Source of the DNA: a virus
DNA: 64,000 bases
Strand: one strand, 5' to 3'
IMG/VR virus record: IMGVR_UViG_3300028840_006907
Location: 288,001-352,000 of that record
The translations under genes were made by a program, and so were the position numbers. Of this stretch, positions 4,336 through 63,665 are shown piece after piece. The notes under the pieces were generated by a model that was given only the letters and a program-made list of their open reading frames with translations, did no database searches and had not been told where the DNA came from. Positions within the stretch are counted from its first letter, which is position 1. Each line of letters begins with the position of its first letter.

Positions 4336-7320
4336 ATGGCAGAGCAATTAAAAGTTGGATGGGTCGGATATGGGGGTAATAGTTGGATGGCTGAGGATCT
4401 TCGGCCAGTTATAGAAAAGCTAGGAATGACTTTATTCACGATTCATGAACATGATAACGCAGATATTAAATGGGAAAAGGATAACTGGTTCAATCATTTA
4501 AAAAAAGCTGATATAGTTATAGCTCCAGCTAATTATAAAAAACAACCTGCAAAGAGTGCAAATCGATTAATACAATCAATGTCAATGGGTAAACCTGTCA
4601 TATGTTCTCCTTTACCTGCATATTTAGATGTGGCTAAAAAACATCCTGGTTCATTTCTTCTAGCTGATGTCCCGGAAGAATGGGAGGAATGTTTAAAATT
4701 GCTTAGAGATAATCCTTCTTTTCGTAAACAGATGAGTGAGAAGGCTCTAGAAGCTGTTGAAGATTTTTCGATAAATGTCATAGGAAATAAGTGGCTAGAA
4801 TTATTAGAGAAAGATGTACCAATAAAAAAAGATACTGAATCGAATAAAGTTCTTATTACAGATATAATCATACCTACATATAAAAATCTTCGTGGCTTGA
4901 AGTTATGTATTGAGAGTATTCTGGAGTGTACGTTAGTGCCGTACAATATTATAATTGTAAATAATGGAACTGATGAGGAATTGCATAACTATTGTTCTCA
5001 ATTGGTAAATGTAACTTACATAAAAAAAGACAGACTTAATTTTGCCCAAGCCATGAATGTCGGGATTAAAGCAGGTGATTCTGATTTAGTCGTTCTATTA
5101 AATGATGATGTTATTGTCAGTAAAGGATGGCTTATGAATTTGAAATATGCCTGTACTGAAGATGTGGGTGCAGTAGGACCTTTAAGTAATTGTGATAAAT
5201 CCTGGCTCCATAATCATGATATCAATATTGGTGGAGTAGAATTACTGCCTGGTTCAAATACTTTTGAACAAATTGAGCCTATTATTTCTCAGATATATAA
5301 TTATGAATCTCCTTTTTTAGAAGAACCTGAACGAAAATGGGTTGCATTTTATGCTACTTTAATTCCTCGGTCAGTAATAGAAGAAGTAGGTTTTTTAGAT
5401 GAGTCCTTTACAAATTCGGGAGAGGATGTTGATTATTGTAACAGGATTATGAAGTTAGGGTATAAAATAAAACAGACCTATAAAAGTTTTGTATTTCATT
5501 TCGGAGCTGTAAGTAGGAAATTACTGGAGCAGGAAGATAAGGGCACTTATCAGAAAGCTGATGAGGAGACTCAAGAATATTTAAAGATCAAGTATTCAAA
5601 ACCAACAGTAATAATCTATTCCGGTGCCAGTTGGGAGAGATGGAGTTATAAGTCTCTTGAACAGGGGGGTATTGGTGGTAGTGAAGTTTGGCAGATAAAT
5701 GTTTGTCGTGAGTTAAATAAATTGGGTTATAGAGTAATCAGTTTTAATGATTCCCCGGAAAAGGAAATGTGGGAAGATGGGATTCAATATCTTCATTATG
5801 GAGAATTTTCGAAATGGTGTGATGGTAACTATGCCGATTACGCAATTATAAGTAGAACAACCGATCCTTTACATCATCCTTTAAGAGCTGGAAAAATATT
5901 TATAATGGTTCACGATGTCTGGTTACTTTCTGCTAGAGATCAATTATTCCTTGATAAAGTAGATAAATTTTGTGTACTTAGTAAATGGCATTGGGATTTT
6001 TTTAAAGGTCACCATGGAATCCAAGATGAATCAAAATTGGCGTTGACTTCTAATGGGATAGATTTTAATCGTTATGATAACAAAAATATTGAAAGACATC
6101 CTTATAAAATGTTTTACAGTTCTTCCCCGGATCGAGGTCTTGATACACTCCTTTACCTATTTCCCTTTATTAAGGAAAAAATTCCAGAACTTGAACTCCA
6201 TATTTATTATGGATTTAACAATTGGGAAAAGGCAGTGAAGATGAGAAAAAACCAGATTGAGATAGATAGAATGAATAAAATAAAAAAGGATATGGAACAA
6301 CCTGGGGTATTTTATCATGGCCGAGTTGGTCAGAAGGAGCTAGCTGAAGCGCAATTAGAATGTTCTCTTTGGGCCTATCCGACGGATTTTGAAGAAGTTT
6401 TTTGCATCACTGCTATTGAGGCTCAAAGAGCCAGAATCCCTGTATTAGCAACGAATTACGCTGCTTTACAGACAACAGTAGGTGACTCAGGAATTCTAAT
6501 AGGAAATGGCATGAAAGGAGAATCTTATACACGAGATTATCGATTAAAATTTGTAGATGAGTGTATAAAAGTTTTAACAGATAAAGAATATAGAGAACAC
6601 TGGATTGAGAAAGGTTTAAAAAATACGGAGAAATATTCTTGGGAACAAGTGGCTAAAAATTGGAAGAAATTGTTTGAAAAAAGTGATCAAAAAGTAGAAG
6701 CAAAAATTATAGATGAAAAAGAATACAAGAAAGATCGAGTGCTAGTTCATGAAATGAAAATAAGTTCTAATTATATGCCAGATCCTCACAGCCATTTAAA
6801 TAATGAGAGAGATCGTTTTCATTATTATAAAACACTTAATGCTTTCGTTTCATCAAATTCATGTAGTGCATTGGATGTGGGTTGTTTTGATGGGTGGATT
6901 GATTTTCTTCTTATAGAACAAGGATTTAAATTAACTGGAGTTGAGTTGATGGAACCTCTTGTTCAAGCTGCTCGAAAATATGCAGAAGTTAAACAACTTG
7001 ATTATACAATTTATCAGGGTTTTTTTGAAGAGATTGAGATAGACCAGAAATTTGATTTAGTGATATGTTTGGAGACTTTGGAACATATTGATTTAAAACT
7101 TGTCCCTGAGTATATACAAAAAATGAAAAGTCTTGCTACAAAGGGTCTTTTCATATCACTCCCGGATCAGAAACATGAAGATAATACCCAGCATTTATGG
7201 ACACCTACTGAAAATTTAATAAGAAAAATGTGGGGTAATAAAAAGAATTTTTCATTGGAATACCATACTTATCAGGATTCAAATTTACCCGCTAATTGGT
7301 TAATTTATTTCGAAGTGTAG
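4336..7320 (+). CDS. 994-aa multidomain glycosyltransferase / methyltransferase fusion
   Basis: Four segments. ~4336-4830: GT-B C-terminal-half-like. ~4858-5536: GT2 (IIIPTYKN, LLNDDVIVSKGW, GEDVDYCNR). ~5608-6676: GT4/GT1 (GGIGGSEVW, EVFCITAIEAQRARIPVLATN). ~6825-7320: class I SAM methyltransferase (ALDVGCFDGW, LVICLETLEHI). Confidence 0.85.
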   Translation: MAEQLKVGWVGYGGNSWMAEDLRPVIEKLGMTLFTIHEHDNADIKWEKDNWFNHLKKADIVIAPANYKKQPAKSANRLIQSMSMGKPVICSPLPAYLDVAKKHPGSFLLADVPEEWEECLKLLRDNPSFRKQMSEKALEAVEDFSINVIGNKWLELLEKDVPIKKDTESNKVLITDIIIPTYKNLRGLKLCIESILECTLVPYNIIIVNNGTDEELHNYCSQLVNVTYIKKDRLNFAQAMNVGIKAGDSDLVVLLNDDVIVSKGWLMNLKYACTEDVGAVGPLSNCDKSWLHNHDINIGGVELLPGSNTFEQIEPIISQIYNYESPFLEEPERKWVAFYATLIPRSVIEEVGFLDESFTNSGEDVDYCNRIMKLGYKIKQTYKSFVFHFGAVSRKLLEQEDKGTYQKADEETQEYLKIKYSKPTVIIYSGASWERWSYKSLEQGGIGGSEVWQINVCRELNKLGYRVISFNDSPEKEMWEDGIQYLHYGEFSKWCDGNYADYAIISRTTDPLHHPLRAGKIFIMVHDVWLLSARDQLFLDKVDKFCVLSKWHWDFFKGHHGIQDESKLALTSNGIDFNRYDNKNIERHPYKMFYSSSPDRGLDTLLYLFPFIKEKIPELELHIYYGFNNWEKAVKMRKNQIEIDRMNKIKKDMEQPGVFYHGRVGQKELAEAQLECSLWAYPTDFEEVFCITAIEAQRARIPVLATNYAALQTTVGDSGILIGNGMKGESYTRDYRLKFVDECIKVLTDKEYREHWIEKGLKNTEKYSWEQVAKNWKKLFEKSDQKVEAKIIDEKEYKKDRVLVHEMKISSNYMPDPHSHLNNERDRFHYYKTLNAFVSSNSCSALDVGCFDGWIDFLLIEQGFKLTGVELMEPLVQAARKYAEVKQLDYTIYQGFFEEIEIDQKFDLVICLETLEHIDLKLVPEYIQKMKSLATKGLFISLPDQKHEDNTQHLWTPTENLIRKMWGNKKNFSLEYHTYQDSNLPANWLIYFEV

Positions 7321-8930: not shown

Positions 8931-10280
8931 ATGGAACAAAAATTATCGGTTATAGGATTAGGTAAATTGGGCTGTACAATGATGGTATGTTTTGCTCATA
9001 AAGGATGGGAAGTTATAGGGGTTGATGTTAATGAATTAACTATTGAAACTATTCTACGAGGTCGGAGTCCTATCGATGAACCTTTTGTAGAAGAGATGAT
9101 AAGTGATAATGCAGAAAGGATAAGAGTAACATCTGATTGTGAAAATGCTGTTTTAAATAGTGATGTAAGTTTTGTAATAGTTCCTACTCCCAGTAAGGAA
9201 GATGGGTCTTTTTCGACAGAATATGTTGAAAATGCTACAATGGAAGTTGCGAAAGCTTTGACAAAAAAGAACTCTTATCATTTAATTGTAATTACTTCTA
9301 CTGTTCTTCCTGGAGACAGTCTTCGAATTTCTTATGAGATTGCTCGGGAGTCAGGGAAAGAACTAGGAAAGGATTTCGGTGTTGTTTATAATCCTGATTT
9401 CATAGCACTCGGTAAAATTGTCAGCGATTTTTTAAACCCTGACATGATCCTTATCGGTGAGTACGATGAGAAGTCAGGAGATATCATTCAAGACATACAC
9501 CTGAAACTTATAGATAGTAATCCTACTTTTCATAGGATGAATTTCTTTAATGCTGAACTGGCGAAAATTTCTCTTAATGCCTACTGTACTTTGAAAATTA
9601 CTTTTGCGAACATAATCGCGGAGATATGTGAGAATTTACCTGGCGGTGATTCTAATAAAGTCTTAAGTGCTGTAGGAGCTGATAGTCGGGTGGGTCAAAA
9701 ATATCTCAAAGGTGGTTTGGGGTACAGCGGACCATGTTTTCCGCGTGATAATCGAGCCCTCGCCCATTCTGCAAGGTTCTTTGGCACTACAAATTATTTC
9801 TGTGAGATGACAGATGCAATAAACAACTATCATAAAACAGAAAGAATATGCAATCTTTTATTGGGGTACATGGAAGAAAAGAACACAAAAGAATTAGCTA
9901 TACTTGGTTTATCCTATAAGGAAGATACTCCTGTGATTGAAGAATCTGTATCTATTTCAGTTATAAAAACTCTTTGGGAAAAAGGAATGAATATAAAAGT
10001 TTTTGATCCGGTTGCTATGGAAAATGCAAAAAGAGAATTAGAAGGTTATGATAATATTTATTATGCCTCTTCTGAATATGATTGTATAGATGGTACTTCC
10101 GTTTGTTTTATAGCTACTCCTTGGAAACAGTTCTTTAGTTTGAATCATCAAGAAGTAATAAAAAGAATGAAAAAGAGTTCTATTATTCTTGACTCATGGG
10201 GAGTATTACCTTATGACAGAGCAACTAATAGAGGCAAAAAAGTAGAGGTAAAACAACTAGGGAAAAATTATCAATCGTAA
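8931..10280 (+). CDS. nucleotide-sugar dehydrogenase (UDP-glucose/GDP-mannose dehydrogenase family)
   Basis: N-terminal Rossmann VIGLGKLGCTMMVCFAHKGWEVIGVDVN; catalytic-Cys region GGLGYSGPCFPRDNRAL; family-typical length of 449 aa. Confidence 0.85.
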   Translation: MEQKLSVIGLGKLGCTMMVCFAHKGWEVIGVDVNELTIETILRGRSPIDEPFVEEMISDNAERIRVTSDCENAVLNSDVSFVIVPTPSKEDGSFSTEYVENATMEVAKALTKKNSYHLIVITSTVLPGDSLRISYEIARESGKELGKDFGVVYNPDFIALGKIVSDFLNPDMILIGEYDEKSGDIIQDIHLKLIDSNPTFHRMNFFNAELAKISLNAYCTLKITFANIIAEICENLPGGDSNKVLSAVGADSRVGQKYLKGGLGYSGPCFPRDNRALAHSARFFGTTNYFCEMTDAINNYHKTERICNLLLGYMEEKNTKELAILGLSYKEDTPVIEESVSISVIKTLWEKGMNIKVFDPVAMENAKRELEGYDNIYYASSEYDCIDGTSVCFIATPWKQFFSLNHQEVIKRMKKSSIILDSWGVLPYDRATNRGKKVEVKQLGKNYQS

Positions 10281-24661: not shown

Positions 24662-25480
24662 ATGAACCTTCTTCAGAGAGTAAAAAAATATTGGGATGAT
24701 AGACCCTGTAATATACGCCATTCAAAGGAACCCGTTGGAACCAGAAATTATTTCAATGAGGTTGAATATAAAAAATATAAAGTTGAACCGCATATATCAG
24801 GTTTCGCTGATTTTAATAAATGGAAGGATAAAAAGGTCCTTGAGATAGGCTGTGGGCTGGGCACTGAGACTATAAATTTTGCTAGAGCTGGTGCTAGGGT
24901 TGTCGCTGTGGATATGTCTGAGAAATCTTTGGAGCTGGCTAAGAAACGAGCGGAAGTTTTTGGCTTGTCCGATAAGATTACATTTTATCAGGGAAATGCT
25001 GAAGAACTTGATAAATTTATCCCAGCTCAGAAATTTGATCTTATCTGGTCTTTTGGTGTTATTCATCATACCCCGAATCCTGAGAACGTTATTGAATGTA
25101 TCAAGAAGTACCTGTCTCCAAGCAGTGAATTACGAATGATGGTTTATAATAAATTTAGTTGGAAAGTATTCTGGATCCTTTTTAAGTACGGGAAGTTTAA
25201 GTTTTGGGATATTGATAAATTCATAGCTCAAAATTCAGAAGCTCAGACCGGGTGCCCAATCACCTACACTTATACAAATAAATCAGTTCAAAAATTACTA
25301 AAAGGGTTTGTAATCGATAATATTAAAATTGAGCATATTTTTCCTTATAAAATTCGTGAATATAAGGAGAATAAATTCAAATTTATCTGGTATTTTAGAT
25401 ACCTGCCCAAATGGTTTTTTCATTGGTTAGAAAAGAGAATCGGTTGGCATATGTGCATAATCGCCAGATGGAGAATTTAG
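24662..25480 (+). CDS. class I SAM-dependent methyltransferase
   Basis: VLEIGCGLGTETINFARAGARVVAVDMSEKSLELAKKR and FDLIWSFGVIHH. Confidence 0.8.
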   Translation: MNLLQRVKKYWDDRPCNIRHSKEPVGTRNYFNEVEYKKYKVEPHISGFADFNKWKDKKVLEIGCGLGTETINFARAGARVVAVDMSEKSLELAKKRAEVFGLSDKITFYQGNAEELDKFIPAQKFDLIWSFGVIHHTPNPENVIECIKKYLSPSSELRMMVYNKFSWKVFWILFKYGKFKFWDIDKFIAQNSEAQTGCPITYTYTNKSVQKLLKGFVIDNIKIEHIFPYKIREYKENKFKFIWYFRYLPKWFFHWLEKRIGWHMCIIARWRI

Positions 25481-25482
25481 GG

Positions 25483-25567
25483 GTGGCCAGCCCCGCGTAG
25501 GCGGGGAAAAGGGATACGATAAGAAAAAATCTGCTCTGTGGAACAGCCCCACGAAAGTGGGGAATAA
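25483..25567 (-). CRISPR. two-repeat mini-array / solitary CRISPR-repeat-like hairpins (reverse orientation)
   Basis: Minus-strand copies CTTTTCCCCGCCTACGCGGGGCTGGCCAC (25483-25511) and TTATTCCCCACTTTCGTGGGGCTGTTCCA (25539-25567) match the repeat of the 51.4-kb array; 27-nt intervening sequence; sits between convergent genes. Confidence 0.55.
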
Positions 25568-25631
25568 TGCCACCCATTTTAAAAGATAGTATTGGGTGGT
25601 CTTTTAAATCAACTCTAAATTTTCCAGGAGT

Positions 25632-26096
25632 TTACAACCAGTCATCTTCTTTTCGGATAGATATTTTAGATAAAGTATCATTGTTAAGAAAAAGAGTTAC
25701 AATATAACGAACCCATTGATCATCATAATACCCAAATTCTTGTATTTCACTATTATCTGGAAATGAATCTACTATAACACTAGGTCCATAAACTTTCAGG
25801 ATTTTTCTTTTTGACATTCCAATCTTTAAATTTTGAAATTTACCTTCTTTAATTTCGATGTTATATAATCGGTGAGCAAAGATGTAACAAACCATATTCG
25901 GATAGTGCATATAAAGATCACTTTTAATAGTATCAATTTTTATAGGTTCTCCGAATTTTTCTATAACATCTTTAACAGTAAGGTCTTTTCGAAGATCGAA
26001 ATCAGGTCCGAATGGGAAGACACCGCAACTGTCGATTGAACGACTGAAGCATAAACTTACAAAAAGTATGATTGATATTAAAGTTTTCATATTCAC
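25632..26096 (-). CDS. secreted protein (signal peptide)
   Basis: N-terminus MNMKTLISIILFVSLCFS is a typical signal peptide. Confidence 0.55.
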   Translation of the reverse strand: MNMKTLISIILFVSLCFSRSIDSCGVFPFGPDFDLRKDLTVKDVIEKFGEPIKIDTIKSDLYMHYPNMVCYIFAHRLYNIEIKEGKFQNLKIGMSKRKILKVYGPSVIVDSFPDNSEIQEFGYYDDQWVRYIVTLFLNNDTLSKISIRKEDDWL

Positions 26097-50823: not shown

Positions 50824-51252
50824 ATGAGCAATATGAAAATTGCAATAGCTTCTTATATGCGTTATACAGTTGTTTTAGCCAACTTGAAAGAGCATTTCAA
50901 AAGAGAACTCGATCTAGCTGGCCTATTTGATAAAGACTCCGATTATAATGGAATGATAGGTAACGCTGTTATGGACCTGTGTAAAGTCTTCTCTGATCAG
51001 GGCCATAGCGGGTTCTCCGCGAACTGGGTTCTGAAATTGTTCGATACTCTTGGTCACTATAAAACGTTGACTCCTATTACAGATAATCCGAAAGAGTGGA
51101 TGAAGGTTACAGATGGCCTCGGTAGAGATGAACCGGTCTGGCAGAGTAATCGAAATCCTTCCCTTTTTTCTAATAATGGTGGAAAGAGTTATTATGATGT
51201 AGACGATAAGAAGCGTAAGAAGATCCGCTCTAAAAAGTTTAAAAAGAAATAA
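50824..51252 (+). CDS. hypothetical protein
   Basis: ATG 50824 follows upstream stop (track start 50788 overlaps); basic C-terminal tail. Confidence 0.5.
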   Translation: MSNMKIAIASYMRYTVVLANLKEHFKRELDLAGLFDKDSDYNGMIGNAVMDLCKVFSDQGHSGFSANWVLKLFDTLGHYKTLTPITDNPKEWMKVTDGLGRDEPVWQSNRNPSLFSNNGGKSYYDVDDKKRKKIRSKKFKKK

Positions 51253-51414
51253 TTTTTCTGAATAAATCAGGTTTTTTTCTTATTCTTTCGATAATTTCTC
51301 TTCTCTTTTTTCTCATAATTTATTATAATTATATATAGTATCTATAGCTCTTTGAAATTGGTAGAAATTTACTGAATCCGTAAGCCCTTGATCTTATGAT
51401 ATTTATGTTTTAGT
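51253..51414 (+). promoter_or_regulatory. AT-rich CRISPR leader-like region
   Basis: 162-bp gene-free AT-rich segment immediately 5' of the first repeat in the I-E repeat orientation; possible TTGATC(51388)-17 nt-TAGTAT(51411) promoter, weak. Confidence 0.45.
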
Positions 51415-52313
51415 ATATTCCCCGCGTATGCGGGGCTGGGCCGATAAATCTTAAAATGGGTAAGATAAAAACCTGAATATTCCCCGCCCATGCGGGGCTG
51501 ATGCGTAATATAAATAATTTTTGATCAATTATAGGACATATTCCCCGCCCCTGCGGGGATTCCCCGAAAATATTGATGTTTTTTTGTATATATCAAAAAT
51601 ATTCCCCGCCCCTGCGGGGTTGATGCGAATACCGAACAAGTGCAGGGCCTGCAGATTATATATTCCCCGCGTATGCGGGGCTGGCGCGTAGGAGGTAAAA
51701 ATGAAATCGAAACATATTCCCCGCGTATGCGGGGCTGGTTCTAGAATTGAATGAAGCGCTGAATTTTCCCCGCCCATGCGGGGCTGAACCGACCGGGAAA
51801 TCATATCTATCCATAAATCTTGCATATTCCCCGCGTATGCGGGGCTGAACCGATACTAGATTGGGACATGTGTTTACCCAGAACATATTCCCCGCCCATG
51901 CGGGGCTGAACCGATTTCAAAAAACACGACCAGATAAAGATGAATATTCCCCGCGTATGCGGGGCTGTGTCAGGGTGAGAGGCTCGTGACGAATAATTTT
52001 TCATATTCCCCGACTCTTCGGGGTTGCCCCTCAGGAAGCTATTGAATTGCAAAAAACTGTATTCCCCGTCTATGCGGGGCTGTCTCTCCACATGCAAATG
52101 TAAGTAGTAAATACTGAATATTCCCCGGCATTCCGGGGCTGATCCCGTCTGGTAAAAACATAAAATGGTTCATCATAAGTATTCCCCGCCCATGCGAGGT
52201 TGGGCCATCCAGTACTGCTACTGCTAGGACCGTATTCCCCGCCCATGCGGGGCTGATCCTACGACTGGGACAGAAGTATTCATTGGTTTCACCCCGGCCT
52301 TTCCGGGGTCTAA
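51415..52313 (+). CRISPR. type I-E-like CRISPR array, 16 repeats, no adjacent cas genes
   Basis: Best repeats ATATTCCCCGCGTATGCGGGGCTGAACCG at 51824 and 51885 (51763 differs slightly). The TTCCCC anchor recurs at 51418, 51480, 51541, 51602, 51663, 51717, 51766, 51827, 51888, 51947, 52006, 52062, 52121, 52182 and 52235, plus a degenerate copy near 52288. Unique intervening sequences. Confidence 0.85.
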
Positions 52314-52316
52314 AAT

Positions 52317-52355
52317 AAGGATCTGAGATTTTTTTCTTAGATCCTTATATTTTTA
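52317..52355 (+). terminator. rho-independent terminator immediately after the array
   Basis: AAGGATCTGAG (52317-52327) pairs with CTTAGATCCTT (52336-52346) with one G-U; 8-nt loop; T-rich tail. Confidence 0.65.
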
Positions 52356-52409: not shown

Positions 52410-53315
52410 ATGGCAATTGCGTTTATGAGAGGAAGCACCACTAATCAGAATGATTTGACCATAACGGTACGTGATACATCCAATAATTTGATCGACCCGT
52501 ATTCGTTGGAGTATGCTGTCTTCGATTACACTAGTGGCACTGAGGTCCTCATCGGATCCCCTGTTAATACTCCGCTCAAGTTGTCAACAGGAGAATATTG
52601 GGCGGAGGTTGTAATAGCAGCCGATGCCAATATAGGTCTCTGGCGCATCCGTTGGACAATTCAAGAAACAGCAGTCAGTCCTGTTTATCAATCGGTTCAG
52701 GAATTTCAAGTAGTAGGTTCCAGTGTTGTGACGAGTGTAACCGGAGATGCAAATTTTGATGCATTGGTCCATTCTTTACGAGTGATACTCCGAGACAACA
52801 ATCCGGACCGCAACTACAGATTTCGTCCCCCAGCTTCCGAGAAATTTATCCAAGGTCAGACCCAAGTCTTTGGATTCATTTGGGAAGATGAAGAGCTTGT
52901 AGAGTATATATACATGGCTATTGACGACTTCAATTCACGCCCCCCGACTACAGGTATAGATGTGGCCAATCTTTGGGGAACTGAGAGACGGTGGAGAACT
53001 ACAATTATTTTAAGAGCAGCAGCTTTTGCATGTTTCGCTATAACAATGAATTGGATCGCTGACGAATTTTCTTATTCAATTTCTGGAGTATCTCTTGACA
53101 TTGAGAAATCTTCGAAGTATCAATCTATGAAAGAGAATTATATCAATGAATATGACAAGCTTGTCGAGGCCAATAAGAGATCCATAAAAATTATAAAAGG
53201 TCTTAGGCAATATCGGTACGGGGTGGGCATCACGAGCGCCCTGGGACCCATGAACAGACCTGGAGTTCAAAGTAGAAGAAACCTTATAAGTCCAAGTTAT
53301 GGCCCTTATTTCTAA
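52410..53315 (+). CDS. hypothetical protein (possible virion protein)
   Basis: 301-aa ORF; visibly less AT-rich than its surroundings; no motif recognised. Confidence 0.5.
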   Translation: MAIAFMRGSTTNQNDLTITVRDTSNNLIDPYSLEYAVFDYTSGTEVLIGSPVNTPLKLSTGEYWAEVVIAADANIGLWRIRWTIQETAVSPVYQSVQEFQVVGSSVVTSVTGDANFDALVHSLRVILRDNNPDRNYRFRPPASEKFIQGQTQVFGFIWEDEELVEYIYMAIDDFNSRPPTTGIDVANLWGTERRWRTTIILRAAAFACFAITMNWIADEFSYSISGVSLDIEKSSKYQSMKENYINEYDKLVEANKRSIKIIKGLRQYRYGVGITSALGPMNRPGVQSRRNLISPSYGPYF

Positions 53316-53408: not shown

Positions 53409-55859
53409 TTATATTTTATTATTTTTTCTAAGGAGAGCTATCTGACGTTTAATCCATCGAGGAGTTTCTTCAAGAGTTTCAGCCATTTGATTTCTTGTCA
53501 TCTTTCCACGATTATCTATTATGAATTGGAGCTTTTCTTCAGTCTTTCTATCTTTGGTACAACCAATAGGGTTTTTTGTAGATAATGTACCTTTTTTTTG
53601 TAAGAATTTTATTTGAGATTTAACCCATCGCTCTGTTTCATTGAGAGCTTTAGATAATTCTTTTTTAGTTTTATTTTTATAATTAGTGATTATATACTGC
53701 GTTTTTTCAGGGGTTCTTCTACATTTTGTTGAGAATTTAGAAATCTCTTTTAAATAGGTAAATTTCTCAGTGGGTTGTTTAATATTTATATCTTCAATAC
53801 ATTTTGAATTATATATTTCTTTTTCTCTTTTAGGATAAGGTTTAGTAACATAATTTTTTAATTTGTTAATTTTTTTCTTATCTCTTTTATTTTCACCTAT
53901 TAATAAGACATATTTATGTTTTCTTTCAGTAATAAATTTTTGAGCTTCAGATAATATATTTTTATTCCAATTATTCCATTGAACTTTAATTCCTTCTGGT
54001 ATGGTACTCATATTTTTAAAACCATTTTCTTTAAACCATTCCTTTTGAGAAATAATCCCTTGATTTTTACACCATTTTTTAAATGCTGATGTACGTTTTA
54101 GAGATTGAGCTGAAAAAGTCCTATTATTTTTAATGGAAGGATGTTTATATAAGTATGAACTTCCAAAGTTATTTCCTAGATAATCAAATCCACAAGCTTG
54201 GTAAATAGTCCCTATTTCAAGAGCTTTAGGATCAGCATAACCTATGAAAGCTCTTTTAGAAGTGTTATTAGCCATCCAATTACAAGCAAACCTTATAAGA
54301 CGGCTACCCAGGTTTTTCGGGGTCCATGAGGCAGTGGCACCTCTTTGAATTAAAGCTTCATATTTGGGAGTATCTTTACCTAGAATTTTGGAATATGCTG
54401 TGGGTTCATTTATAAATAATACTCCTGCGAGAATATTATTGTATCTGGCTGTGAAGCACCATTTTGGTATTACTCCAATTGTTCCTAACCATTCATATTT
54501 TTTTATAAATTGGACCATTTCATTATTAAATTTTTCTTCAGATAATGTAAAAGAAGTAGCTTTTAAAGAAGAGTGATTGAAATCGATATTTTTTTTATCT
54601 TCATCAATCCATTGAAGTTTCTTTTTATATTGGTGGCATATAAAAGTGGTCTTGTTTTTACTGTTAATTTTATTTTTTATTAAATCAATGATAATACCTT
54701 TTCGGATAGCTTCTTTTACATCATCAGACCAAAATCTAATCAAATTGGGTATATTTTTATTTTGGATTTCATCATTCTTAATATTTTCTTTTATTTTTAA
54801 TGCCCTTGGAGACGTATCATTTTCTCTTATTTCTTTACCATGCCAATAATTACCATCATATTGTACCCATAAGTTATAGCGAGGCATATAGAAATCAATT
54901 ACATGTTTAATAATTGGGTGCATAACTTGATGTTCTACAAAAGGATCAAATACAATAAGATAATTAAAAAAGTTATTTTCTTCATCTGAGGATGAGAAGG
55001 AATTATTTAGTTTAACTGTTTTATATGTTTTTTCTTTTATTTCAACATTCTGTTGGGGATTTTCAACGCCATATCTTTCAATATTAGTTTCAGTGATTTT
55101 TTTCTTAATCTCTGGAGATTGGAATACATTGTCAACCCCGTATCTTGATTGTACTGTTACTTTAACTTTTCTTTTTACTTCTTTAGATTGAGAGGGGTAT
55201 TCTACTCCTCGTTTTTCAATATTAGATTGACGGGATTTTTCTTTCATTGAGTTTAGTTGAGTAGAATATTCTACGCCATAACGTTTTTTAATAGTTTCGT
55301 TATTATGTTTAACTATATCTTCATTTATTTTATCTCGATTCCTTCTTAATCCTAGTTTAATAGCTCTTTCTCGGATGGCTTTCCAGGTCCTGTTTTCAAA
55401 GTAGAGCATAATAAATTCCATAGAATTCTTTTCATATACTTCTTTTAAAAGATCATCTTCTTTGGGTGACCAGAAGTCTTCCCTAGCAGGAGCGCTTTTA
55501 CCACCATCAATCATTTCTTGTTTAATTATTTCAGGATTTCTTTGAAGGTTTAATTTTTGAGCATTACTTCGGATGCTTTGCCATGATCGATTCTTGAATT
55601 TAGAAAGGATAAATTCTTTTGAATTATTTTCATATATATTTTTAAGAATATTTATCTCTTCGGTTGTCCAGGAATCTTTTCTTGGTCCTCTTTTTTTACG
55701 GTCTTCATTTATAAGGTCAGGATTACGGTGAAGATTTAGCTTACGTGCTTTTCTACAGATGGTTGTCCAAGATTTATTTAATTTGGAGATAATAAATTCT
55801 TTTGAATTATTTTTATATATTTCTTTTAATAAATTTTCTTCTTCTATTTTCCAACGCAT
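53409..55859 (-). CDS. free-standing homing-endonuclease-like mosaic protein (Myb/SANT x3, HNH-associated repeats, PD-(D/E)xK-like core, Mom/GNAT-like domain, C-terminal HTH repeats)
   Basis: ATG 55859 with RBS aagagg (track start 55916 less likely). Three W-x2-EE-x2-L...Y...W...I repeats. Four (R/K)(Y/R)GVExxxQ repeats. VIDFYMPRYNLWVQYDGNYWHG. NLGSRLIRF...FIGYADPKALEIGTIYQACGFDYLG. Confidence 0.65.
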   Translation of the reverse strand: MRWKIEEENLLKEIYKNNSKEFIISKLNKSWTTICRKARKLNLHRNPDLINEDRKKRGPRKDSWTTEEINILKNIYENNSKEFILSKFKNRSWQSIRSNAQKLNLQRNPEIIKQEMIDGGKSAPAREDFWSPKEDDLLKEVYEKNSMEFIMLYFENRTWKAIRERAIKLGLRRNRDKINEDIVKHNNETIKKRYGVEYSTQLNSMKEKSRQSNIEKRGVEYPSQSKEVKRKVKVTVQSRYGVDNVFQSPEIKKKITETNIERYGVENPQQNVEIKEKTYKTVKLNNSFSSSDEENNFFNYLIVFDPFVEHQVMHPIIKHVIDFYMPRYNLWVQYDGNYWHGKEIRENDTSPRALKIKENIKNDEIQNKNIPNLIRFWSDDVKEAIRKGIIIDLIKNKINSKNKTTFICHQYKKKLQWIDEDKKNIDFNHSSLKATSFTLSEEKFNNEMVQFIKKYEWLGTIGVIPKWCFTARYNNILAGVLFINEPTAYSKILGKDTPKYEALIQRGATASWTPKNLGSRLIRFACNWMANNTSKRAFIGYADPKALEIGTIYQACGFDYLGNNFGSSYLYKHPSIKNNRTFSAQSLKRTSAFKKWCKNQGIISQKEWFKENGFKNMSTIPEGIKVQWNNWNKNILSEAQKFITERKHKYVLLIGENKRDKKKINKLKNYVTKPYPKREKEIYNSKCIEDINIKQPTEKFTYLKEISKFSTKCRRTPEKTQYIITNYKNKTKKELSKALNETERWVKSQIKFLQKKGTLSTKNPIGCTKDRKTEEKLQFIIDNRGKMTRNQMAETLEETPRWIKRQIALLRKNNKI

Positions 55860-55962
55860 ATGAGTACCTCTTTTTAGTATATTACTTATTATAACAGGTA
55901 TTAGAGTTATTGTCAATATTTCATTTAATAAATATGGAATTCATTAATTTATAGGGAAAAAG

Positions 55963-59978: not shown

Positions 59979-62900
59979 ATGGCTCAAGTAGAAAGAAAAT
60001 GGATCCAGGACCAAGCAATTTCCAATGAAAAAGTAGATCCCACTGATATTTATACCATTACAGGTTTAAGAGTTGATGAAACCAATGCCATTGGGAGAGT
60101 AGGAATAGGTTTATCTAGCCCTTTGGATGCTCTTCATATTCAACGAACTGATTCTTCTTCTGGAATGATGCTGGATCTTAGTGATGGTACAAATGGTAAA
60201 CTTTATAAGATATATTCAGGAGCTAATGGTTTACTGAATTTTACTGATGCTACAGATGGGGGCATATTCACCTATGGTGAATCAGGTTCGATAGGTCGAG
60301 TTGGTATCAATACCGCATCTATCCAAGATCACCTTCATGTAAGTTCCCCTTTAACAGATGCTGCGTTAAGACTTGATTTAGATGATGGACTCAATGGTCG
60401 AGCTTATCGTCTTGTCTCAGATACAGATGGAGCTTTTAGGATAATTGATGTTGATGCGGGTAATGTAAATAGACTTCAGATTGCTAATACAGGAACTTTA
60501 ACTGTCTCAGGTGATGCAACTTTTGATAGTAATTTTCAAATTAATGGTACTGTTACAGTTATTAATACTGAAATTGTCATTGCAGATCAATTAGAAATAA
60601 ATCAAACTGACAATCAGGCAGCATTGATAGTAAGTCAAGATACAGGTGGTGCTACAGCCACTGTAATGAGAATTGAAAATGCTGGCACAGGCCATGCTTT
60701 AACCGTAGATTCTGGTAATGTAGGTATTGGTACTTTAACTCCGGCTGCTCCTCTTCATGTTCAAGGTGATATAATTACTGCCAATGGGTATAATATCGGA
60801 GACACCACTCATAGAATTGGTACTCTTTGGATGGCTTCTACTGTAGATTATTTGACTGACCTTAATTTTAGTTCAGGTGGAACAAATGTTACTTTTGCAA
60901 CCGGTGGAAATGTCGGGATAGGTTCTGGTACTCCTACCCAGGCCCTGGATGTGGTTGGAACTATAGAAAATACAGGTGATATCATAACAACTGGTTCTTA
61001 TCCTTCCGGTTTAATAAGAGGAGCTTATTTAACGATAACTACTGGAAATTCGACTTTCCAAGGAAGAGTGGGAATTGGTGTTACAAGTCCGTCTTATCCT
61101 CTTCATGTTGGTGGAGACATTTATTCCAATACAGGTAATATTGTAGCCACTGCTGGAACTGTGACAGGTGGATCTGGTTTAATAGCTACTACAGGTGGTG
61201 TTATAGCCTCTGCTGGAAATATAACAGCGACCTTGGGTGATCTCATCGCTTCTGCGGGTTCTGTAACTGCTAATACAAATGTAACTGCTACGAATGGAAA
61301 TATAGTTGCTTCTAATGGAAATATTTCTGCTACGAATGGTACAGTAACAGGAGGCACCGGTTTAATAGCTACCACAGGGGGTGTGACCGCTACGAATGGA
61401 AATATAGTTGCTTCTAATGGAAATATTTCTGCTACGAATGGTACAGTAACAGGAGGCACCGGTTTAATAGCTACCACAGGGGGTGTGACCGCTTTAGCTG
61501 GTAATATCTCTGCTTCGGCTGGTTCTGTAACTGCTAATACTAATATAACAGCCACGAATGGTAATATTGTTGCTTCTAATGGAAATATTTCTGCTACAAA
61601 TGGTACGGTAACAGGAGGCACCGGTTTAATAGCGACTACAGGTGGTGTAACCGCTACGGCTGGAAATATCACTGCTTCAAATGGTAGTTTTGTCGCTCCA
61701 AATGGAATTGTAAGTGTAGGTTTTGGCGTTATAGCAGCAGGGGGTGATATATTTGCCCAAACGGGTAAAGTAGGAATTTCAACCAGTTCTATTGCAGGAG
61801 GTTATGTATTACATGTTCAAGGAAACGCTTATTGTTCAGGTCAAGTAGATACAAATACTTTGGATGTAGGTAGTGGCAGTTTTACTGTAAGTGCAATTGG
61901 TGCAACAAATATCGGACCAGGCTGGTTAACTTTCGGTCAACATATGTCTGGTGGAGGACAGATTGGATCTGCTTCTACCGTAAATATTGTTTCAACCAGT
62001 GGTGCAACTATGTCAGGAGGTTCAGGCGCTGTCTCAATTACTACTAATAACAGTGGTACGCCAAGTGCGATTAATGTGACCTCTGGAAATAACACCGGAT
62101 CAGGAGTTGGTGGAGCACTCAATCTGAATGCAGGTGATTCGGGAGGAGCTGGTACAGGTGGTGCAGTAACTATTACTGGAGGAACGGCTTCAGGTGGTGG
62201 ATCTACAGGAGGAGACATTTTGCTGCTTCCTGGAAGTGCTGTCTCAAATGGGCGCGTTGAGGTAGGCACAGGTGCCTCTTCGAAAAATTTATGGGTTTCA
62301 GGTAGTGTAACTATAGAAGGAGCTAATTCTGCTTTTGCTCTTTCGATTAATAATACGAATTATGTAGGAGCTTATTGTGCAATAGCAGGAGCATCAACGG
62401 TAGCTGGCTGGTTTGAAAATAGTGGTTCAGATTCAACATCTATGTTTGTGCAACAATTAAATACTGGTAAAGGGCTTTTCGCTACTGGATTAGGATTAAA
62501 TTCTTTTGCAGGATTTTTCCAAAGTACGGGCTATACAACTCTTAGGTCAGAAGTGAGTGGTACTGGAGGTGGTGATTATGCTGTACATGCAATATGTACA
62601 AATGCTGGATCGAGTGCCACTTCAGCAGCAGTTTTTGCTCAAAATTGGGGAGGTGGAAAAGCTATTCAGGCAACCGCAGGAACTGGAACTACTATTCAAG
62701 GGTCAAACACTAATGGTACTGCTATTTATGGGTCTCAAGCAGGAACCTCTGGTAGAGCAGGACGTTTTAGGTGTAATGCTGGATCTTATGCATACAATGC
62801 TGTTGAGGTAGAAGTGACTTCAGGTACAGGAGCTTCAAAAGGGATCTTAGTTAATTATACCGGTTCTGGTAATGCTATAGAAGTAAACGGTGGTAGTGGC

Positions 62901-63665
62901 TATGGTATTGAAGCATACCAAAGTGCAGGAACAGTTTATCATGGGACTAATTCAGGAACTACAGGTAGAGCTGCTTTATTCGAAACTTCTAATACCAGTT
63001 TTAATGGTACTATAGTTGAAATAAGTAGTAATACAACATCACTGAATAATAATTGTTTAGTTTGCAATCATTCAGGTAGTGGTACAGGTCTTACTGTTAA
63101 CTCCAATGCAGCGGGTGCTAGTTTTGGTATTAACAGCTTTATGCCGGGTGTCTCTGGAACTGGAAGAGCTATTAATGGCTACTGTGTTTCAGCATCAGGA
63201 TTTGCCGGTTATTTTACTGGGAATGTACATATTGCGGGTACTCTTTCTAAAACTGCGGGTGGTTTTAAAATTGATCATCCAATTGAACCTGAGACAAAGA
63301 ATTTAGTTCATAGTTTTGTTGAAAGCCCTGAGATGAGGAATGTCTATTATGGACGGGCTGTGACTCATGATGGGACAGCATCTATAGGTCTTCCGGATTG
63401 GTGGGTTACATTAAATGGGTCTAATAAGGAAGAGTATAATTATAGTTTAACTACTATTGGTAAATACAGCAGATTATTTATTAGTAAAGAAATAGAGAAC
63501 AATCAATTTGAAGTCTCTTCATTGGATGGAGACTGTACTTTTTCCTGGACTATCTCAGCCATTCGCCATGATACTTATGCTGAGAGCAACAGAATACAAG
63601 TAGAAAAGAACAAAACACAAGAAGAAATAGATGATTATAAAAAAGAGCATGGCATTTCTGTCTAA
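59979..63665 (+). CDS. tail-fibre-like protein (1228 aa) with Gly/Thr/Asn/Ala-rich repeats
   Basis: RBS aaaggag; repeated VGIG...P...LHV motifs; 34-aa repeat ATNGNIVASNGNISATNGTVTGGTGLIATTGGVT x3; long beta-rich G/S/T/A core; conserved C-terminal FKIDHP...VESPEMRNVYYG module. Confidence 0.8.
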   Translation: MAQVERKWIQDQAISNEKVDPTDIYTITGLRVDETNAIGRVGIGLSSPLDALHIQRTDSSSGMMLDLSDGTNGKLYKIYSGANGLLNFTDATDGGIFTYGESGSIGRVGINTASIQDHLHVSSPLTDAALRLDLDDGLNGRAYRLVSDTDGAFRIIDVDAGNVNRLQIANTGTLTVSGDATFDSNFQINGTVTVINTEIVIADQLEINQTDNQAALIVSQDTGGATATVMRIENAGTGHALTVDSGNVGIGTLTPAAPLHVQGDIITANGYNIGDTTHRIGTLWMASTVDYLTDLNFSSGGTNVTFATGGNVGIGSGTPTQALDVVGTIENTGDIITTGSYPSGLIRGAYLTITTGNSTFQGRVGIGVTSPSYPLHVGGDIYSNTGNIVATAGTVTGGSGLIATTGGVIASAGNITATLGDLIASAGSVTANTNVTATNGNIVASNGNISATNGTVTGGTGLIATTGGVTATNGNIVASNGNISATNGTVTGGTGLIATTGGVTALAGNISASAGSVTANTNITATNGNIVASNGNISATNGTVTGGTGLIATTGGVTATAGNITASNGSFVAPNGIVSVGFGVIAAGGDIFAQTGKVGISTSSIAGGYVLHVQGNAYCSGQVDTNTLDVGSGSFTVSAIGATNIGPGWLTFGQHMSGGGQIGSASTVNIVSTSGATMSGGSGAVSITTNNSGTPSAINVTSGNNTGSGVGGALNLNAGDSGGAGTGGAVTITGGTASGGGSTGGDILLLPGSAVSNGRVEVGTGASSKNLWVSGSVTIEGANSAFALSINNTNYVGAYCAIAGASTVAGWFENSGSDSTSMFVQQLNTGKGLFATGLGLNSFAGFFQSTGYTTLRSEVSGTGGGDYAVHAICTNAGSSATSAAVFAQNWGGGKAIQATAGTGTTIQGSNTNGTAIYGSQAGTSGRAGRFRCNAGSYAYNAVEVEVTSGTGASKGILVNYTGSGNAIEVNGGSGYGIEAYQSAGTVYHGTNSGTTGRAALFETSNTSFNGTIVEISSNTTSLNNNCLVCNHSGSGTGLTVNSNAAGASFGINSFMPGVSGTGRAINGYCVSASGFAGYFTGNVHIAGTLSKTAGGFKIDHPIEPETKNLVHSFVESPEMRNVYYGRAVTHDGTASIGLPDWWVTLNGSNKEEYNYSLTTIGKYSRLFISKEIENNQFEVSSLDGDCTFSWTISAIRHDTYAESNRIQVEKNKTQEEIDDYKKEHGISV
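61287..61490 (+). repeat. perfect 102-bp in-frame tandem duplication inside the fibre gene
   Basis: 61287-61388 and 61389-61490 are identical at all 102 nt; a third copy at 61551-61652 differs at 9 positions, all synonymous. Confidence 0.9.

Follow-up and report, generated by a model that had tools for sequence, protein, structure and literature searches.

Solitary repeat units carried by phages are RNA anti-CRISPRs that bind Cas6 and Cas7, and two of them, RacrIE1 and RacrIE2, belong to type I-E (Camara-Wilpert et al., Nature 2023, PMC10651486). Phages also produce crRNA-like RNAs (Cracrs), which consist of degenerate repeats and short spacers (24 and 21 nt for type I-E), are sometimes arrayed, and act as anti-CRISPR RNAs by competing for Cas proteins and repressing cas promoters (Liu et al., bioRxiv 10.1101/2024.10.29.618823). 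Viral mini-arrays of one or two spacers take part in inter-virus competition, with repeats identical to those of the host and spacers mostly directed against related viruses (PMC11656645). Canonical type I-E arrays combine repeats of 29/28 nt with spacers of 32/33 nt in a 61-nt period. We compared with these systems a pair of repeat-like hairpins (positions 25483 to 25567, minus strand; the mini-locus) located in a 64,000-nucleotide stretch of viral DNA (the window; positions 288,001 to 352,000 of IMG/VR record IMGVR_UViG_3300028840_006907). The mini-locus fits Racrs and crRNA-like RNAs better than classic viral mini-arrays, and we place it with moderate confidence in the known class of phage-borne CRISPR-repeat mimics of the Racr and Cracr kind. 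The most notable aspects of the finding are the conservation of an orthologous pair in a related phage and the presence of a heterogeneous 15-unit array next to a Tad3 gene.

The window has a G+C content of 33% and belongs to a ~389-kb contig of a huge phage, which is uncultivated and comes from the sediment of a saline lake. The window matches JGI contig Ga0180437_10000019 (388,651 bp; metagenome 3300017963) with one mismatch over the stretches compared, and its proteins are also found on contigs of up to 469,617 bp. No terminase, capsid or other phage hallmark gene was recognized within the window, so that the phage assignment leans on indirect lines of evidence. The product of a 301-codon gene located beside the 15-unit array (52410-53315) has 112 relatives in IMG/VR contigs of up to ~450 kb, and homologues displaying 81-88% identity are present on contigs of up to 512 kb. 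This protein had no PHROG, Pfam or PDB sequence match, and its structural model (pLDDT 70, medium confidence) resembles virion proteins of tailed phages, among them the BppU N-terminal domain/BppU-type baseplate proteins and gp165 of Bacillus phage G. The window also codes for a Tad3-family anti-Thoeris protein and a Mom-like protein. Together, the relatives of the 301-aa protein, its predicted virion-like fold and the two anti-defense genes point to a huge tailed phage as the source. Several homologues of the 301-aa protein (~67-89% identity) comprise ~460-510 residues including an intein domain (PF14890), the window copy being intein-free. Toward the end of the window, a 1228-aa open reading frame (59979-63665) contains in-frame tandem repeats at 61277-61686 (plus strand) with periods of 21, 81 and 102 nt, the copies of the 102-nt unit being 98% identical. 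Beyond the window, it is followed by genes for proteins of 1158, 741 (Laminin_G_3) and 1305 aa, which are probably fiber or host-recognition proteins.

The two hairpins of the mini-locus, whose sequence is exactly that given by the initial annotation, lie between the stop codons of two convergent genes, as had been claimed. The first, on the plus strand (24662-25480), encodes a class I SAM-dependent methyltransferase and is the last gene of a sugar-nucleotide block comprising genes for UDP-glucose dehydrogenase, epimerases, a DegT aminotransferase, NeuB, a CMP-sugar synthetase, a formyltransferase and a sulfotransferase. The second, on the minus strand (25632-26090), encodes a 152-aa protein with weak DUF4309/BamE-like matches and is the last gene of a block for glycosyltransferases, methyltransferases, a radical SAM enzyme and fragments of a TPP enzyme. 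The mini-locus is thus located at the junction of two glycan gene blocks, in agreement with the earlier description. Genes for sugar-nucleotide synthesis and glycan tailoring occupy ~30 kb on both strands (8931-39759), a region that also includes genes for a PIG-L deacetylase, a GT10 fucosyltransferase-like protein, GT2 enzymes, sulfotransferases, many methyltransferases and the split TPP-enzyme fragments. A 994-aa fusion of GT2, GT1 and methyltransferase domains is encoded at 4336-7320.

Read along the minus strand, the mini-locus consists of an upstream candidate repeat mimic, miniA (TTATTCCCCACTTTCGTGGGGCTGTTCCA, 25567 to 25539), a spacer-like segment (CAGAGCAGATTTTTTCTTATCGTATCC, 25538 to 25512), which is the 27-nt gap initially reported, and a downstream candidate mimic, miniB (CTTTTCCCCGCCTACGCGGGGCTGGCCAC, 25511 to 25483). 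The layout of miniA (TTATT-CCCCAC-TTTC-GTGGGG-CTGTTCCA) comprises a 6-bp stem, in which an A:U pair replaces a G:C pair, and a 4-nt loop; that of miniB (CTTTT-CCCCGC-CTAC-GCGGGG-CTGGCCAC) ends 2 nt from the methyltransferase stop codon. The two units are identical at 19 of 29 positions and have the same orientation as the 152-aa gene, which places them, in the sense orientation, in the 3' untranslated region of that gene. The existence of a distant and inverted second repeat locus was confirmed: a main array of 15 units is located 25.8 kb away on the plus strand (51415-52260). The window contains 16 matches to the pattern TTCCCC-N6-12-GGGG, versus 0.44 expected from shuffled sequences, and the 16 are split between the mini-locus (2, minus strand) and the main array (14 at 51.4-52.3 kb, plus strand). 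Perfect 6-bp GC-rich hairpins show nearly the same distribution, 18 of the 19 listed for the window falling at the two loci, a count that includes two overlapping duplicates and a terminal hairpin at 52292. An unfiltered covariance model built on the 17 units, which scores miniA at 35.1 bits (miniA itself being in the seed alignment), revealed no further copy in the window or in the adjoining 5.7 kb on the left and 9.7 kb on the right. A 25/27 match to miniA in Escherichia phages of the Drexlerviridae was rejected as a chance resemblance, since it corresponds to an ordinary terminator hairpin.

As judged from layout and consensus, the repeat units of both loci belong to the type I-E family. 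Each is organized as 5 nt, a 6-bp stem interrupted by a 4-nt loop, and 8 nt, and the units display the features of the I-E repeat consensus (GC stem of 6 to 7 bp, 4-nt loop, TTCCCC...GGGG core). A genome scan identified genuine arrays with a 61-nt period and repeats of the form GTGTTCCCCGC....GCGGGGCTGAACCG in many bacteria, and metagenome arrays with the same period containing GTATTCCCCACGCACGTGGGGCTGAACC were also recovered. The CTGTTCC tail of miniA is a natural variant present in genuine I-E arrays. In the genome scan, the repeat core was shared by many GC-rich I-E hosts, so that no single host stood out. A metagenome scan with the loose pattern TATTCCCC-N8-GGGGCTG mostly returned single chance matches, and among the matches listed were few genuine I-E arrays and not the contig of this phage. 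Rfam searches detected no family in the whole window at the gathering threshold and, in E-value mode, only chance-level matches and no CRISPR repeat family at the two loci. No Cas family was present among the precomputed Pfam assignments of the genes called in a region extending from 5.7 kb before to 9.7 kb after the window (~79 kb of the ~389-kb contig).

Despite this homology, neither locus has the regularity of a canonical type I-E array. The repeats are heterogeneous (19/29 identity between miniA and miniB; a mean of 22.9/29 among the units of the main array), the spacers depart from the uniform 32-33 nt (27 nt in the mini-locus, 20 to 33 nt in the main array), and an adjacent cas operon is lacking within the ~79 kb searched. 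The 27-nt intervening sequence had no match in INPHARED, IMG/VR (searched with every sixth base free), the window or 80 related huge-phage loci, and its comparison with ~120 type I-E loci gave no match above 13-14 nt, which is the chance level. The two best-formed spacers of the main array likewise gave nothing above chance in INPHARED, IMG/VR, the window and the loci of relatives. Because its repeats are identical at only 19 of 29 positions and its spacer is short and had no match in these searches, the mini-locus is neither a canonical CRISPR array nor a classic viral mini-array. The initial suggestion of a one-spacer mini-array or solitary repeat units therefore holds in part: the units are homologous to type I-E repeats and have no cas gene nearby, but the locus is not a regular mini-array.

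The main array forms a self-contained unit. Downstream of the gene for the Tad3-family anti-Thoeris protein (50824-51252, plus strand), which lies immediately upstream of the array, an AT-rich leader-like region (23.5% GC) with a promoter-like site (TTCTCA-18-TATAGT, 51310-51339, plus strand) precedes the 15 units, and the whole is closed by a strong terminator-like hairpin of 14 pairs followed by a T-run (52315-52348, plus strand). A large DUF7487/Mom-like gene (53409-55916, minus strand) is located on the side of the array region opposite to Tad3. Hairpin and 5' flank are conserved across the units, whereas the 8-nt 3' handle is variable: the canonical CTGAACCG handle is found only in units 7 to 9, these three units having 32-nt spacers, and the leader-proximal units are non-canonical. 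The 61-nt period is observed only in parts of the array. Hairpins inside the spacers did not exceed background, and the content of the array was identical in assemblies from three samples. In these sequence features, the main array resembles a series of repeat mimics more than it does an adaptation-fed array. Inside the array (51690-51754, plus strand), a perfect Shine-Dalgarno sequence (AGGAGG, 51690-51695) is located 5 nt before an ATG (51701) that opens a 17-codon reading frame; this frame (MKSKHIPRVCGAGSRIE) reads through repeat unit 6 and may be due to chance or encode a small peptide.

The related contigs compared at this site lack the array. In contig L333 (8451-9477), which encodes a Tad3 protein 75% identical to that of the window, the interval between Tad3 and the 301-aa gene contains a 123-aa open reading frame and non-coding DNA and no repeat unit, which suggests that this slot is a variable site for anti-defense cargo. 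The terminator-like hairpin at 52315-52348 is conserved in this array-less contig. The hairpin at 52292-52308 (plus strand; CCCCGG-CCTTT-CCGGGG) was considered as a degenerate last repeat and rejected, since it has a counterpart in L333 (~9375-9395); it is more likely part of the conserved terminator region than a decayed repeat. The array is also missing from L131, the closest IMG/VR relative, and no type I-E-like array or unit was found in 80 related huge-phage loci, weak matches of the model in L198 and L183/L184 being ordinary sequence without the hairpin. A syntenic contig from the same sample as L333, L124, lacks the mini-locus; if these two contigs come from one phage, both loci are absent together.

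The closest relative found is represented by contigs L330 and L331, which originate from two samples and encode a flanking 151-aa protein 70% identical to the 152-aa protein of the window. A pair of hairpins (ATTTTCCCCTGCCTTAGCGGGGATGACCCT, a 25-nt spacer and ATTTCCCCCGTTTTTCACGGGGCTGTTCCT in L330) occupies the same slot, bounded by the stop codons of the 151-aa gene and of the convergent methyltransferase gene, in the same orientation and with a start-to-start spacing of 55 nt, versus 56 nt in the window. A model built exclusively on the units of the window detected both L330 units (E=0.001 and 0.0035 in 1.57 Mb). Stem differences between the two phages are compensated, the upstream units showing A:U versus G:C and the downstream units C:G versus U:A. 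One L330 stem has a bulged T and the other hairpin a 5-nt loop, and the spacers of the two phages are unalignable (27 nt versus 25 nt). Across the 17 units of the window, 99% of the stem cells are paired, with three double compensatory changes and one G-U change, and the covariation score was reached by none of 500 shuffles. Loops and 3' tails vary freely. The unpaired I-E flanks (TT before the stem, C/A-TG after it) are kept in 4 of 4 mini units and in 14 of 15 units of the main array. Since L330 retains the hairpins by compensatory changes in combination with an unrelated spacer, selection acts on the hairpins. In more distant relatives (61-67% identity), the two genes are again paired but no hairpins lie between them. 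As L330 has the hairpin pair and the more distant relatives do not, this comparison traces the origin of the pair to a recent common ancestor and indicates that its hairpins have since been maintained, ruling out neutral debris.

The intergenic region as a whole folds better than shuffled sequences on both strands (z = -4.3 and -4.6). The type I-E hairpins themselves differ from intrinsic terminators, which have a U-run after the hairpin, and from REP elements, which are dispersed palindromes: no T-run follows either hairpin of the mini-locus on either strand, and copies occur only at the two loci in 79 kb. The 3' part of miniA and the beginning of the spacer together form a distinct terminator-like hairpin (CTGTTC-CACA-GAGCAG followed by ATTTTTTCTT; 25521-25546, minus strand), which is not conserved in L330. 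Were this hairpin active, minus-strand transcripts would stop after miniA only. A further hairpin (CCACCCA-N17-TGGGTGG, with TCTTTT after it on the plus strand; 25570-25600) lies within a 45-nt segment missing in L330, and its TGGGTGGC arm has an alternative pairing with GCCACCC in the tail of miniB. The GCCACCC/TGGGTGGC motif occurs three times (25480-25487, 25569-25576 and 25593-25599), making alternative pairings possible. An inverted repeat complementary at 10 of 11 positions (GGAGAATTTAG at 25470-25480 and CTAAATTTTCC at 25616-25626) brackets the intergenic element and overlaps the methyltransferase stop codon. No sigma-70-like promoter matching at least 9 of 12 positions was detected upstream of miniA, a consensus that may not be that of this phage; read-through from the 152-aa gene is a possible source of a transcript. 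Published solitary repeat units are often located directly downstream of a promoter.

The comparison with Racrs reveals both shared and divergent properties. In both cases, repeat-like hairpins of the I-E kind are carried by a phage outside a CRISPR-Cas locus, with no cas gene nearby (within ~79 kb here), and the hairpin is what is kept, the guide part being irrelevant. An anti-defense neighborhood (Tad3 adjacent and the Mom-like gene nearby) surrounds the sister locus, the mini-locus itself being flanked by glycan genes. Unlike a Racr, which has one unit and no second repeat within ~100 bp, the mini-locus has two units 56 nt apart; it lacks a detected dedicated promoter, being located in a 3' untranslated region between convergent operons, and no recognizable acr gene adjoins it. 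SRUFinder classes a locus as a mini-array when a full match and a partial match next to it are at least 90% identical (PMC10651486), and miniA and miniB are too divergent to be assigned to this category. Like Cracr arrays, the locus is phage-borne, array-like and multiplexed, and its degenerate units flank a shortened spacer (27 nt, or 25 nt in L330, versus 21-24 nt for type I-E Cracrs). It differs from them in that the spacer is not conserved between orthologues, Cracrs being defined by a partial match (at least 9 PAM-proximal nt) to a host cas or creT promoter or by similarity to a host CreR/CreA, and in that the main array contains 15 units rather than the two or three spacers described for Cracrs. 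Viral mini-arrays share with the mini-locus the repeat-spacer-repeat organization in a virus without cas genes (in the ~79 kb searched), but the repeats of the latter are unlike each other and its short spacer has no target among the related viruses searched. With canonical type I-E arrays, the two loci share the repeat consensus, the hairpin and, in parts of the main array, the 61-nt period; they differ by heterogeneous repeats, variable spacers, non-canonical leader-proximal units and the lack of adjacent cas genes.

We tentatively favor the possibility, which we hold at somewhat less than even, that the mini-locus is a pair of degenerate type I-E repeat mimics acting on host Cas6e/Cascade in the manner of a Racr. 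Transcripts of the minus-strand operon that ends with the 152-aa gene would carry the pair, in sense, as their 3' tail. Its hairpins retain the I-E geometry that Cas6e recognizes (a 6-bp GC stem with a 4-nt loop, preceded by TT and followed by CTG), and the mimic RNA would bind Cas6e of the host, and possibly also Cas7, yet supply no useful guide. Such binding would titrate the machinery for crRNA processing and Cascade assembly, as Racrs do, with the heterogeneous 15-unit array beside Tad3 as the larger arm of this strategy. That the mimics are transcribed, bind Cas6e and inhibit CRISPR is our inference. The basis of this reading is the I-E homology of the units, selection on hairpins and not on the spacer, the lack of cas genes in ~79 kb and the anti-defense context. 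Conservation of the hairpins but not of the spacer leads us to favor a decoy of the Racr type over a guide of the Cracr type. Counted against the mimic reading are the lack of a promoter directly upstream, the absence of a recognizable acr gene beside the mini-locus and the relaxed hairpins of L330; deviations in bulge and loop are reported to impair Cas6 processing (bioRxiv 10.1101/2024.10.29.618823). Selection on hairpins is also equally expected of a purely structural RNA element. In an extended form of the mimic reading, which we consider unlikely, the two loci would constitute a 17-unit set of non-identical I-E mimics acting as a broad-spectrum RNA sponge for the Cas6e/Cascade of various hosts. 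The hairpins would be fixed and the 3' handles would sample natural I-E variants (CTGAACCG, CTGATCC and CTGTTCC, with ATGACCC in the relative); one arm, next to Tad3, would form an independent unit running from promoter to terminator, and the other, in the 3' untranslated region of a glycan-modification operon, would couple decoy output to expression of that operon.

The main rival to the mimic reading is a structural RNA role, according to which CRISPR-derived hairpins now serve for 3'-end protection, termination or insulation between convergent operons, with no Cas contact. The exact position of the pair between two stop codons in both phages, the strong folding of the intergenic region on both strands, the terminator-like hairpin with its T-run inside the mini-locus and the relaxed geometry in L330 (bulge and 5-nt loop) are all consistent with this role. 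However, the I-E hairpins have no U-run on either strand, and they keep the unpaired I-E flanks in nearly all units, which a generic hairpin would not need. Moreover, such hairpins are not used in the other intergenic regions of this window, and relatives have the same gene junction without them. We regard the structural explanation, which includes the role as mere 3'-end elements that the initial annotation had named as its refutation, as somewhat doubtful, if worth retaining. A guide function of the Cracr type would involve processing by host Cas6e/Cascade of a 56-nt RNA, made of the 8-nt handle CUGUUCCA, the 27-nt spacer and a 21-nt hairpin, which would repress immunity by partial matching to the promoter of cas8e/casA or of the CreT toxin. 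Two degenerate units flanking a spacer shorter than the canonical 32-33 nt are what this function predicts (published I-E Cracr spacers being 24 and 21 nt; bioRxiv 10.1101/2024.10.29.618823); the CTGTTCC handle is found in natural I-E arrays, and short spacers (20-27 nt) are present in the main array too. Yet the spacer differs between the two orthologous loci and includes a terminator-like signal, and its best matches to ~120 I-E loci remain at the chance level. We consider this function to be rather improbable.

Explanations based on functional CRISPR immunity or recombination are less compatible with the data. The phage could have its own CRISPR-Cas system, with cas genes elsewhere in the ~389-kb genome, the 15-unit array as a guide store and the mini-locus as an orphan fragment. 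Huge phages often carry CRISPR-Cas systems, some of them incomplete (PMC11656645), the cas search covered ~79 kb of the genome, and three units of the array combine the canonical handle with 32-nt spacers. On the other hand, no cas family was present within those ~79 kb, heterogeneous repeats with non-canonical leader-proximal units are the opposite of an adaptation-fed array, the array content did not vary among three samples, and the searches of INPHARED, IMG/VR, the window and the loci of relatives revealed no protospacers; an own system is improbable. We find it very improbable that host Cas proteins use the single spacer of the mini-locus against a competing related phage for superinfection exclusion. 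Viral mini-arrays of one or two spacers that mostly target related viruses do exist, but those described have host-identical repeats (PMC11656645), whereas miniA and miniB are far below the SRUFinder threshold of at least 90% identity and the 27-nt spacer is matchless in IMG/VR, INPHARED and 80 related huge-phage loci. The initial annotation had also envisaged that the inverted repeat copies might mediate inversion of the whole 25.5-51.4 kb segment. The two loci are indeed in inverted orientation, but their longest common exact run is 11 nt, well below the requirement of homologous recombination. In addition, gene order was constant in assemblies, which can hide minor isomers: seven contigs carry the methyltransferase with the same neighbors at the 25.5-kb junction, three samples gave assemblies with an identical 51.4-kb junction, and L330 (70% protein identity) keeps the gene-repeat-repeat-gene synteny. 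A role as recombination substrate is barely conceivable on this evidence, and the idea of an inversion switch for inverted repeat loci is removed as misleading.

If the mimic reading is true, the range of RNA-based anti-CRISPR strategies would come to include a huge phage that is uncultivated and lives in saline lake sediment. The two loci would then provide a natural case of many divergent mimics (2 + 15) selected for the hairpin alone. The orthologous pair of L330, from a phage with 70% protein identity, offers an evolutionary test set in which the stems are compensated and the spacer drifts, and may help to define what a Cas6e decoy needs.
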